Position numbers: made by a program. From the NCBI RefSeq assembly GCF_045037415.1, contig NZ_CP173438.1: a stretch of DNA of 64,000 nt. One strand, written 5' to 3'. This stretch comes from Escherichia coli (GTDB taxonomy: Bacteria > Pseudomonadota > Gammaproteobacteria > Enterobacterales > Enterobacteriaceae). Of the stretch, positions 54,501 through 57,500 are shown piece by piece. Each line of letters begins with the position of its first letter. The first letter of the stretch is position 1.

Positions 54501-57500
54501 TGCACTATCATTCCACTGTACAGACTTGATACCACCACTAGCATTGTTGATTGTCAGTGTTACAGGGATGATTGATTCCCCCTCCCCCTGAACAGACTCT
54601 GGCAAACTGATTTTCAGTGCATGCTTCTTCTTGTACTCCAGAACAATGTTGTTATTTCGTTCAACAAAATCATAACGCCGGTTCTGGACTTCTCGCATAA
54701 CTGCAACATTATCGCTGCTAAGCTGTTCAGCCAAGGAAACGCCCGGGCGATAATTAAACTCAACACCAAAGGTTGTATCGTGAGTGTTGCTCTGTCCTTG
54801 CTTATGCTGTGCAGAAAACTTAATCAGAGGAACTGGTGTATAAGAAATTCCCCCAGTAACTGCGTAAGGGTTTTCCTGCAGGTTATCGCTTCCAAATAAC
54901 CCGACATTTTTACCATAATATTTTTCAAACTGAATAGATGCCCCTAATTGCGGATAAGCAGGTAGCCATCCTTCAGCAGAAAAATCCCAGCCATTTGCAG
55001 GTCTTTCCAGATAATCATCAATATCACGACTGTTCTTCCAGTCAGATAGACCAAAATAGGTATTTACACCAAGCCTGAAATAATCCCTCCAGTACTCAAC
55101 CCCAAAACCTGCACGAGAGTGACTACGACTTAAATCGTAATCATAGAAAACATTCGCACCCAACATTGCGTTATCAGGAGTGAAATGACGAATCCCCAAA
55201 CCAATATTGGTCTGATTTCGGTCATCAGTACGATGTAGTGATGTCTGACTGAATAACACATAATCCTGAGTATCCAGCCATGGATATAAAAAGTCGAATG
55301 ATGAATCCTTCAAGGAAAAAGAATCATCGACATTAAGCTTGATGCGCGCATTGCCATATTGTTGCAACCAGTCGACGACCTCTTTTGTCGCCTGAGTTGA
55401 TAAAGTATTTACAGCAAAACTACTTGCATTATTATTCGCCAGGCTCTGACCTGCACTTGCTGCAAATGAGGCCACTTTATTTGCATGCTCATCGCTGGCA
55501 TAAATTTGCGTAACATCTTTATTACCAGATGATGCAAAACTGTTTGCTGGGATCAAAGAAAGAGAAACTGGAGATAATATCTGGGTAACAATTACCGACC
55601 ATGTAATCGCGCCAGATGCAGTTTTTTTTAACTTTTTATTCACAGTGGTCATAGTTCAATCAACGTTATGAATATAATGAAAAAAATAACTGGTATGACA
55701 AGAGGCGCGAAATATACAGCTCGTTACAAAAAAATCAACTCAAAAATAAAATAAAATCTCTGCATAAACTTTATGGCTAAATGATTTCACAACAATGGAA
55801 GAAAAATTTTGTTGCTCACGCAATCAATCATTTCGGGCGTTACAACTAGTCCTAGATTATATTCGCTAGGTATACTTTATTTTTAAGCTAATACTTTAGC
55901 TCTATTTCATCGCTCCTTTCAGCCCGAACTTAGCTTTGATTTCTGCGATCTTCGCCAGAGCCTGTGCACGATTTAGAGGCCTACCGCCCATGACAGGAAG
56001 TTGTTTTACTGGTTCAGGTATAGCCTCACCACGGTTAATTCGCGCGGTCATACAGGCCAGTTCATCGGCAGCCTTGCGCCGTAATTCCGCGTCAGTCAAC
56101 GCATTGGCCCGCATGTTCTGATACAGGTTGGTAACCAGCCAGTAGTGCGCGTTTGATTTCCACGGATAAGACTCTGCATCCGGATACAGACCACGCTTCC
56201 GGCAATACTCGTAAACCATATCAACCAGCTCGCTGACGTTTGGCAGCCCGGCGGTAACGGATGCTTCTTCCCGGCACCATGCAACAAACTGCCCGGGTGA
56301 TGGCAGAAATGGTCTATTCTGCCGACGGGCAACACGCATTCCGTCGCTCACCTGCTCCATCGTGGTGATCCCGTTTTCCCGGAAAGCCAGAACCCACTGG
56401 CGGCGGATTTCGTTCAGTTCGTTCTGGTCACGATTAGCCAGGCTCGCCGGGAAAGTTGCCAGTAACTGGCTGAATACACCGTTGATTATCTGCGCTACCT
56501 GCTGTACCTGCGGCTTTTCGTCGTACTGTTCCGGCATGTTGTTGGCGATCCGACGCATCTGCTCACGGTCAAAGTTAATCATCTGTGCGGCGATGTTTTT
56601 CATAGATCCACCCCGTAAATCCAGTCTGTGTTTGTCAGGTCGAGTTTTGGTTTGCTAGCTGTCACGCCTGCCTGTTGCTTGTTACGGTTGATTTCGAGTT
56701 GGGTCCACTTGTCGCGGAGTTTGGCCGGACTTAGCACGTTACCGGACCAGAAGTTGTCCTGGCATGCCCAGCGGAACAGCACGCACATGTCGCGGTGGTT
56801 ACGTCCGTCACGTTCACGCATCAGGCGGATATCGTTAGCCCACCCTGCAAAATTCGGTTTTCTGGCTGATGGCGCGATGGTCTTCACCATGTCAAACATC
56901 CACTCTGCGGCGGTCAGGTCTTCTGCTGTCCCCCACTTGCTGCCGCTCTGAATTGCAGCATCCGGTTTCACCACAGGAAGATCGTTTTCTGGTTGGTCAG
57001 AGGATTCGCCAGAATTCTCGGACGAAAAAGGTTTTATATTGTCTTTTGTTAGTTTGTCTTTTGTGTTTACCTGATTCGGGTAAACGCCTTTACCTGATTT
57101 GGGTAAACTTTTTTTACCTGATTCAGGTAAATTTACCTCTTTCAGGTAAACTTTATTTTTCTTACCTGATTCGGGTAATGTTGACCATTCACTGACCACA
57201 TTATTAATGCCGGTATTCCGCCCGCTCTGAATAAAAATCCCACGCTTTACCAGAACACTTTTTGCAGCAGAACACTTGTGCGGCAATATCCCGGTTAATT
57301 CGGAAAGTTGCTCGTTGCTAACCCAATCCAGTTTTTTATTAAAGCCATATGTTTTGCGCATGACAGCCAGAAAGACCAGAAGCTGGTGCTGTGTTAATCC
57401 GGCCAGCATCACAGCTTCCAGCAACTCATTTGCAATGCGCGTATAACCATCATCGAGATCTGCCACGCGCGGCTCCTTTTGTGCCGCATCCGGCACTGGA

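Follow-up and report, generated by a model that had tools for sequence, protein, structure and literature searches.

The modular principle of lambdoid phage replication has been textbook knowledge since 1978-81, and the modular organization of the initiator protein O was reportedly worked out in those years with lambda-phi80 and lambda-82 hybrids, in papers whose titles PMC4488673 cites. Coliphage 82 has a classical O with a type-specific left half and its own repeats, and its right half and P are interchangeable with those of lambda. In O, the N terminus binds DNA, the C terminus binds P, and a flexible linker lies between the two; O occupies each iteron as a dimer (PMC6022878). O-type proteins differ with the specificity of the origin, and P22 gene 18 carries a separate set of four repeats (PMC8022706). 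Lambda carries four copies of an iteron of the sequence TCCCTCAAAACGAGGGA (half-sites TCCCTC..GAGGGA), phi80 carries four copies of TTCCCGAAAACGGGAA (TTCCC..GGGAA), and P22 carries four copies of the 17-bp iteron TTTACCGAwTCGGTAAA. SEN34 combines an iteron of the form TTAGC..GCTAA and a different N-domain with a lambda-like C terminus (80%) and a P protein. The origins of the Stx phages 933W and P27 hold six iterons, with both iterons and O of the lambda type; the extra Stx-phage iterons lie distal to the AT-rich tract and bind O more weakly, yet they are required (PMC7466680). Phages 434 and 21 are annotated with ordinary lambda iterons, and as comparators they add nothing beyond lambda, since their iterons are those of lambda.

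In the window, by which we mean the entire 64-kb stretch of Escherichia coli DNA under analysis, the interval 57022-57179 is very probably the theta-replication origin of a lambdoid prophage, located in the linker-coding middle of O and having a non-lambda specificity that belongs to a clade related to P22 gene 18. The O-type replication initiator gene itself (56600..57529, minus strand) was delimited from the ORF list, Pfam family PF04492, an alignment of start codons, and the annotation of its relatives. Its product is 309 aa long when translation begins at the conserved MANTAEIF, preceded by a GGAGG Shine-Dalgarno sequence; this start was chosen by aligning the starts of lambda, P22, GZ7, SEN34, and phi80, and the RefSeq-style start (57619) lies 90 nt farther up. 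The predicted N-terminal origin-binding domain (57185..57469, minus strand) corresponds to a Pfam match to Phage_rep_O (PF04492; E=9.9e-34) at residues 21-115 with full profile coverage. Alignment with lambda places the C-terminal half of O, which is of the lambda type and presumably docks P, at 56600..57021 on the same strand. A PDB sequence search with O returned no structural template and no solved structure of any relative.

Directly downstream, the P gene (55902..56603, minus strand) encodes a lambda-type DnaB helicase loader, assigned from the ORF list, comparison with lambda, and Pfam (Phage_lambda_P, PF06992, E=3e-61), and its start overlaps the O stop codon. Upstream of O on the same strand are genes for a YdaT-family protein, which takes the position that cII has in lambda, and a YdaS/Cro-type protein, beyond which lie a divergent S24-peptidase repressor and then lambda gam and bet. 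In a genome with a 100% identical O gene, the element is a lambdoid prophage integrated beside icd. The locus has the makeup of a lambdoid O/P-type replicon: a Phage_rep_O initiator, four or more palindromic iterons midway along its gene where the linker is encoded, an AT-rich tract right after the last iteron, and a translationally coupled loader gene immediately downstream. As in lambda, a pO-like promoter may run antisense across the O start; this tentative counterpart (57504..57532, plus strand, TTGAAT-17-CATAAT) is followed by a hairpin at 57567-57599, and an Rfam scan around the origin found no oop-like or other RNA.

Five near-palindromic repeats occupy 57066-57179, inside the minus-strand O gene at codons 117-155, and their consensus is a 19-bp palindrome, TTTACC-YGAATCR-GGTAAA, with the 17-bp core TTACC-N7-GGTAA. 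Searching the 64-kb window for TTACCTGATTCGGGTAAA with up to three mismatches gave seven strand-matches, all in these five sites (0.02 expected from shuffles), and a repeat search returned a single five-copy family whose members start 23, 24, 19, and 29 bp apart on the plus strand. On the coding strand, iteron 1 (ITN1; 57161-57179, ATTACCCGAATCAGGTAAG) is an extra fifth copy farthest from the AT-rich tract; it is followed by ITN2 (57132-57150, TTTACCTGAAAGAGGTAAA), which has the most divergent center (GAAAGAG), ITN3 (57113-57131, TTTACCTGAATCAGGTAAA), ITN4 (57089-57107, TTTACCCAAATCAGGTAAA), and ITN5 (57066-57084, TTTACCCGAATCAGGTAAA), which runs straight into the AT-rich tract. Because the center of ITN2 is divergent and ITN1 has imperfect flanks and lies 29 bp from ITN2, either or both may be weak binders, by analogy with the extra Stx-phage iterons, to whose distal position that of ITN1 is comparable. 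The four iterons nearest the AT-rich tract are spaced at 19, 24, and 23, compared with 20, 24, and 23 in both lambda and P22.

The presumed DNA-unwinding element is a 44-bp AT-rich tract (57022-57065, CACAAAAGACAAACTAACAAAAGACAATATAAAACCTTTTTCGT) that comes after the iterons in gene orientation (minus strand) and holds ACAAAAGACA twice. Its GC content is 27%, compared with 48% for the O gene and 49% for the window. The first 12 to 13 bp of the tract (the ACACAAAAGACA motif) are common to the window, lambda, P22, GZ7, and SEN34, and the opening bases are also found in Enterobacterales homologues, with Pantoea differing at the first base. The initial annotation had placed five 18-bp palindromic iterons and an AT-rich tract inside O at 57030-57180. 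Those coordinates cover the iteron array and the AT-rich tract, and the number of iterons, their palindromic character, and their location within O all hold, as does the presence of the AT-rich tract there; the repeat unit, however, is 19 bp with a 17-bp core and not 18 bp.

We compared the O and P region with lambda at the DNA and protein levels. In a global alignment scored per 30-nt block, O DNA is 33 to 77% identical to lambda through the N-terminal half and the iterons and 67 to 77% identical in the AT-rich tract, and identity is 93 to 100% from window position ∼57026 (lambda ∼39160) up to where P ends, with the exception of a few blocks in P at 77 to 83%. Near-identity starts with the right arm of the lambda origin region (56991..57021, GAGAATTCTGGCGAATCCTCTGACC), corresponding to lambda 39164 onward. 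At the protein level, of the 130 C-terminal residues of O, 129 match lambda O (99%) and P is ∼97% identical to lambda P, while the O N-domain (115 aa) is 49% identical to that of lambda (tblastn, 41% over 168 aa). As read from these alignments, the O gene arose by natural recombination, with the junction of its modules inside the conserved AT-rich tract. The boundary maps to lambda 39157-39166, and the lambda record bears two misc_recomb marks there (39157/8 and 39165/6). As a means of discriminating between phage 82 and phi80 these marks fail, since both candidate sequences mismatch lambda at 39165. The ACACAAAAGACA tract supplies a brief run of identical sequence where the modules meet.

The repeats lie within linker-coding sequence, and ITN1, ITN3, and ITN4 all encode LP(E/K)SGK, as would be the case if they were a by-product of a repetitive LPESGK linker peptide with no role at the DNA level. 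We regard that explanation as highly improbable. ITN2 and ITN5 are read in another codon frame and encode the unrelated peptides VYLKEVN and VYPNQVN, every copy is a DNA palindrome, and the array has the position and spacing of the lambda iterons, which are defined biochemically. Further, when 11 homologues were compared with the window, iteron positions were 86% identical and inter-iteron spacers 56%, and fourfold-degenerate sites in conserved N-domain codons were 41% identical (17 to 31% in distant genera), so that iteron bases, including synonymous ones, are far better conserved than either. A mere peptide repeat was rejected on the two-frame argument. Because a single motif is maintained in two frames and is better kept than spacers or fourfold sites, selection on the iterons evidently acts at the level of DNA and not of peptide.

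To place the iteron type taxonomically, we searched 100,044 species, each represented by a single genome, for exact matches to one iteron. This gave 68 loci, of which 14 are genuine: 13 with an O N-domain homologue and one from Pantoea eucrina that is cut at the locus start and matches the O C-terminal half and P. The remaining loci were discarded as chance matches, ∼35 of which are estimated for a 17-mer in 298 Gb. All genuine loci are from Enterobacterales except one E. coli-like contig binned as Collinsella. The TTACC-N7-GGTAA motif is kept in Klebsiella, Enterobacter, Kluyvera, Citrobacter, Pseudocitrobacter, Pantoea, Xenorhabdus, Arsenophonus, and Sodalis, with N-domain identities to the window of 66 to 85% for non-E. 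coli homologues and 90 to 98% for E. coli-type loci, and both the 19-bp iteron and the 19, 24, 23 spacing are kept throughout the homologues of the clade. Iteron number varies through duplication of a 48-bp two-iteron unit, with four copies in Pantoea and Xenorhabdus; five in Escherichia, Klebsiella, Enterobacter, Citrobacter, and Pseudocitrobacter; seven in Arsenophonus; nine in Kluyvera; and ∼11 in Sodalis.

The helicase-loading side of the replicon is also variable in this clade. The N-domain and iteron unit is joined to a lambda-type C terminus and P in E. coli, Pantoea, and Arsenophonus and to an unrelated C terminus and a DnaC-type loader in GZ7, Enterobacter, Citrobacter, Pseudocitrobacter, Xenorhabdus, and Sodalis. 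The O of Klebsiella phage GZ7, a type also present in KO-TP1, ST11-VIM1phi8.2, and Enterobacterales prophages, has the iteron consensus and AT-rich tract of the window, with five copies at the same spacing (29, 19, 24, 23) and an N-domain that is 83% identical; in contrast to the window, its C-terminal half shows no relationship to lambda O, and the next gene encodes a helicase loader of the DnaC/DnaI type and not P. This layout shows that the N-domain and iteron unit moves independently of the loader module. Since one such unit is found on differing loaders, and SEN34 presents the converse, iteron type in the loci compared tracks N-domain type and not the C terminus or loader. If reading the iterons were the task of the N-domain and docking the loader that of the C-domain, comparison would be expected to give just this pattern, which supports that division of labor.

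The window's replication module is widespread and has close relatives among isolated phages. The 2.6-kb O-P-imm block is 99.7% identical to that of PhiR34_1, an isolated plaque-forming phage propagated on K-12, and 96 to 98% identical to those of 4A7, Lambda_4C10, 1W, 3W, Perceval, Turner, and others; the origin segment is 98 to 100% identical in 15 deposited phages, all of which are annotated as encoding replication protein O. The N-terminal half and iterons (57030-57530) are present in 2296 of 5426 complete E. coli genomes (∼42%), nearly always at ≥95% identity, in up to three places per genome and in six places on plasmids. The exact O protein occurs on at least 1000 contigs, and its 90% cluster has 7825 members. 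Within the searchable literature library, a search for the iteron sequence in both orientations found no paper printing it, the sole match being an irrelevant primer. The origin is thus a common, already sequenced allele and not a new kind of replicon.

These comparisons agree with the initial annotation in finding the C-terminal half of O lambda-like and its N-terminal half and iterons unlike their lambda counterparts, and its proposal of a distinct specificity on a lambda-type P-docking module is supported by an iteron consensus that follows the N-domain clade. The comparison it had suggested with lambda, phi80, and 21 shows that the iterons of lambda and phi80 differ from those of the window and that 21 carries lambda iterons; alignment with the lambda origin reveals no common half-site, contrary to the iteron identity that would have refuted the proposal. 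"New specificity," the term used there, is apt relative to lambda, but it does not suit an allele as common and as often deposited as this one. The nearest characterized relative, P22 gene 18, was not among the systems that it considered.

More specific identities for this origin are conceivable. The strongest candidate is ori82, the classical origin of coliphage 82, whose sequencing dates from 1979-81, with its type-specific O N terminus and lambda-compatible right half; on this reading, to which we give somewhat less than an even chance, the specificity would be neither separate nor uncharacterized. The nin-rus-Q region of the window (45586-47859) matches phage 82 record X92588 at 95.5% identity over 2274 nt, and the lambda-identical right half of O and the lambda-type P fit phage 82, for which both were reportedly described by Furth and Yates in 1978 and Moore et al. 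in 1981. The ori82 sequence itself reportedly appeared in Gene 14:91 (Moore, Denniston, and Blattner, 1981) and Nature 277:621 (Grosschedl and Hobom, 1979). However, none of the 15 phage records with ≥95% identity to the origin is labeled phage 82, although the collection holds a partial record of that phage; lambdoid mosaicism means that similarity in nin-Q says little about the replication module; and the 3.9-kb stretch from P to nin holds inserted morons, which demonstrates rearrangement at that very spot.

Functional equivalence to P22 gene 18 and its origin, such that a P22-type origin has been fused to the lambda P-docking module, seems unlikely. Among characterized initiators, P22 gp18 does have the N-domain closest to that of the window (60% over the domain; tblastn, 54% over 144 aa), and the two origins have in common TTTACC/GGTAAA ends, a GA.TC center, their spacing, and an AT-rich tract. 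Even so, 40% of N-domain residues differ, and the iterons are 19 bp compared with 17 bp in P22; the constancy of the 19-bp unit across the homologues of the clade argues for a fixed dimer geometry different from that of P22. Still less probable is the view that the prophage is cryptic and its origin a decayed remnant that has ceased to fire. Defective prophages are common in E. coli, moron insertions (an inverse autotransporter) lie beside P, and one genome has an IS1 inside this O gene, all of which would fit such decay, but in the window O and P are intact ORFs, and both the near-identity of the O-P-imm block to that of a plaque-forming phage and the conservation of the origin in the 15 deposited phages speak against it.

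We therefore return to the reading of 57022-57179 as a theta origin of non-lambda specificity carried within O. Its anatomy and mosaic structure, the conservation of iteron DNA, and the co-inheritance of iterons and N-domain are directly observed, and a mechanism can be proposed by homology with lambda, from which recognition of the iterons by O and contact between O and P are also deduced. Dimers of the O N-domain would bind the five iterons and assemble an O-some, filling ITN5 to ITN2 and perhaps ITN1 and bending and wrapping the array. The O-some would stress and open the adjoining AT-rich tract, and the lambda-identical C-domain of O would then recruit lambda-type P with its cargo of host DnaB. 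The proteins would be supplied by rightward (pR-type) transcription, which runs through cro, the YdaT-like gene, O, and P and which, as in lambda, would probably activate the origin as well.

The locus offers a textbook case of an origin-recognition unit (O N-domain and iterons) and a helicase-recruitment unit (O C-domain and P) recombining at the AT-rich tract. It would define the origin and the incompatibility or specificity group of a prophage family present in ∼42% of complete E. coli genomes, those of ST131 and O157 among them. Co-resident prophages often share this TTACC-N7-GGTAA origin type, and database records annotate the O gene and not the origin within it. As a discovery it carries little weight, and its practical value is modest. 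We also propose, tentatively and at a little under even odds, that together the TTACC-N7-GGTAA origin and the corresponding O N-domain make up a specificity group that is biochemically uncharacterized and distinct from lambda and P22, one that surpasses all other lambdoid replicon types of E. coli in prevalence (∼42% of complete genomes, up to three copies per genome) and from which the P22 site differs by only one bp per half-site. If so, it would be a natural test case for half-site spacing setting initiator specificity and for cross-activation among co-resident prophages sharing an origin type.

Overall, the locus resembles lambda in its architecture, with an origin inside O between the two domains and a palindromic iteron array followed by an AT-rich tract beginning ACACAAAAGACA, and its O C-terminal half, P, and right arm of the origin are essentially those of lambda. 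The ori-lambda specificity group (lambda, 434, 21, and Stx phages) is marked by TCCCTCAAAACGAGGGA-type iterons and a near-lambda N-domain, and the window has neither: its five iterons share no half-site with the four of lambda. The N-domain is 44% identical to that of phi80 O and ∼40% identical to the corresponding region of the Stx phages. P22 gp18 supplies the nearest characterized N-domain, and the P22 half-site has the same outer (TTTACC/GGTAAA) and inner (GA.TC) elements, the window iteron being longer by one bp per half; the gp18 C terminus, in contrast, is unrelated, and its partner is gp12, a DnaB-type helicase and not a P-type loader. The window accordingly has neither the 17-bp iterons nor the gp18-type C terminus with gp12 of the P22 gene 18 type. 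A separate specificity group is supported by an iteron consensus that follows the N-domain clade down to 66% amino acid identity, and, given the shared outer and inner half-site elements, the O protein of this group and P22 gp18 may still recognize one another's iterons.

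Origins of the TTTACC..GGTAAA iteron family carry 4 to about 11 iterons each among the homologues compared, a range drawn from loci of the exact-iteron scan in Kluyvera (L077), Sodalis (L079), Arsenophonus (L020), and Pantoea and Xenorhabdus (L056, L041, L067, and L076). Copy number changes as a 48-bp unit of two iterons (spacing 29+19) is duplicated in tandem, and the three AT-proximal spacings of 19, 24, and 23 are fixed in most homologues, with slight differences in Arsenophonus and Sodalis. Among complete E. coli genomes, a single genome holds up to three prophages sharing the window's origin type, and six places with this origin type are plasmid borne. 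O157:H7 strain Z1832 has two such prophages, and scan loci L030 and L031 both come from strain E69. In one genome, AH21C062, IS1 interrupts an O gene of the window's type. An E. coli-type O-P segment (98 to 100% protein identity) was also found on a 7-kb contig binned under a Collinsella sp. MAG (L029, JAIJJM010000109.1); this is probably a mis-binned contig of an Enterobacterales phage.

The nin-rus-Q region (45586-47859, minus strand), rightward of the replication genes, shares 95.5% identity over 2,274 nt with the coliphage 82 record X92588, a match that takes in orf33, orf151, a ninE-like gene, orf96, rus, orf45, and Q82. On this side the prophage is thus phage 82-like. Between P and the nin region lies a moron, an inverse autotransporter gene (51744-55652, minus strand) whose 1,302-aa product has an IAT_beta domain and Big_1/Invasin_D3 repeats, with about 100 aa duplicated almost perfectly within the protein. 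Strain 4/1-1 encodes a homologue of 1,421 aa, and repeat number in this protein therefore varies.

RefSeq-style annotation starts O at the ATG at 57619, giving a protein of 339 aa whose gene overlaps the stop of the YdaT-like gene. The alternative start at 57529, which reads MANTAE and is preceded by GGAGG, is the one conserved in the O proteins of lambda, phi80, Klebsiella phage GZ7, and SEN34; the 30-aa N-terminal extension (57530-57619, minus strand) is probably an annotation artifact. A pO/oop-like stretch falls within this extension. On the plus strand, TTGAAT-17-CATAAT (57504-57532), which has a TG upstream, resembles a promoter; this site runs antisense across the O start and is followed by a hairpin with a 14-bp stem, GAAAGUCGGU.CUG...CAGACCGGCUUUC, and a weak U tail (57567-57599). 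Together they could possibly specify a roughly 65-nt antisense RNA resembling oop, a candidate for which Rfam returned no match. The site occupies the position equivalent to that of lambda pO, which reads TTGAGT-17-CATAAT. Upstream on the minus strand, a 179-aa YdaT-family protein (57616-58155) and a 76-aa YdaS-family protein (58225-58455) take the cII and cro positions, respectively; both are toxins by Pfam family name and here sit exactly at lambdoid regulator positions. The annotated "cII" of phi80 has a similar length, 180 aa.
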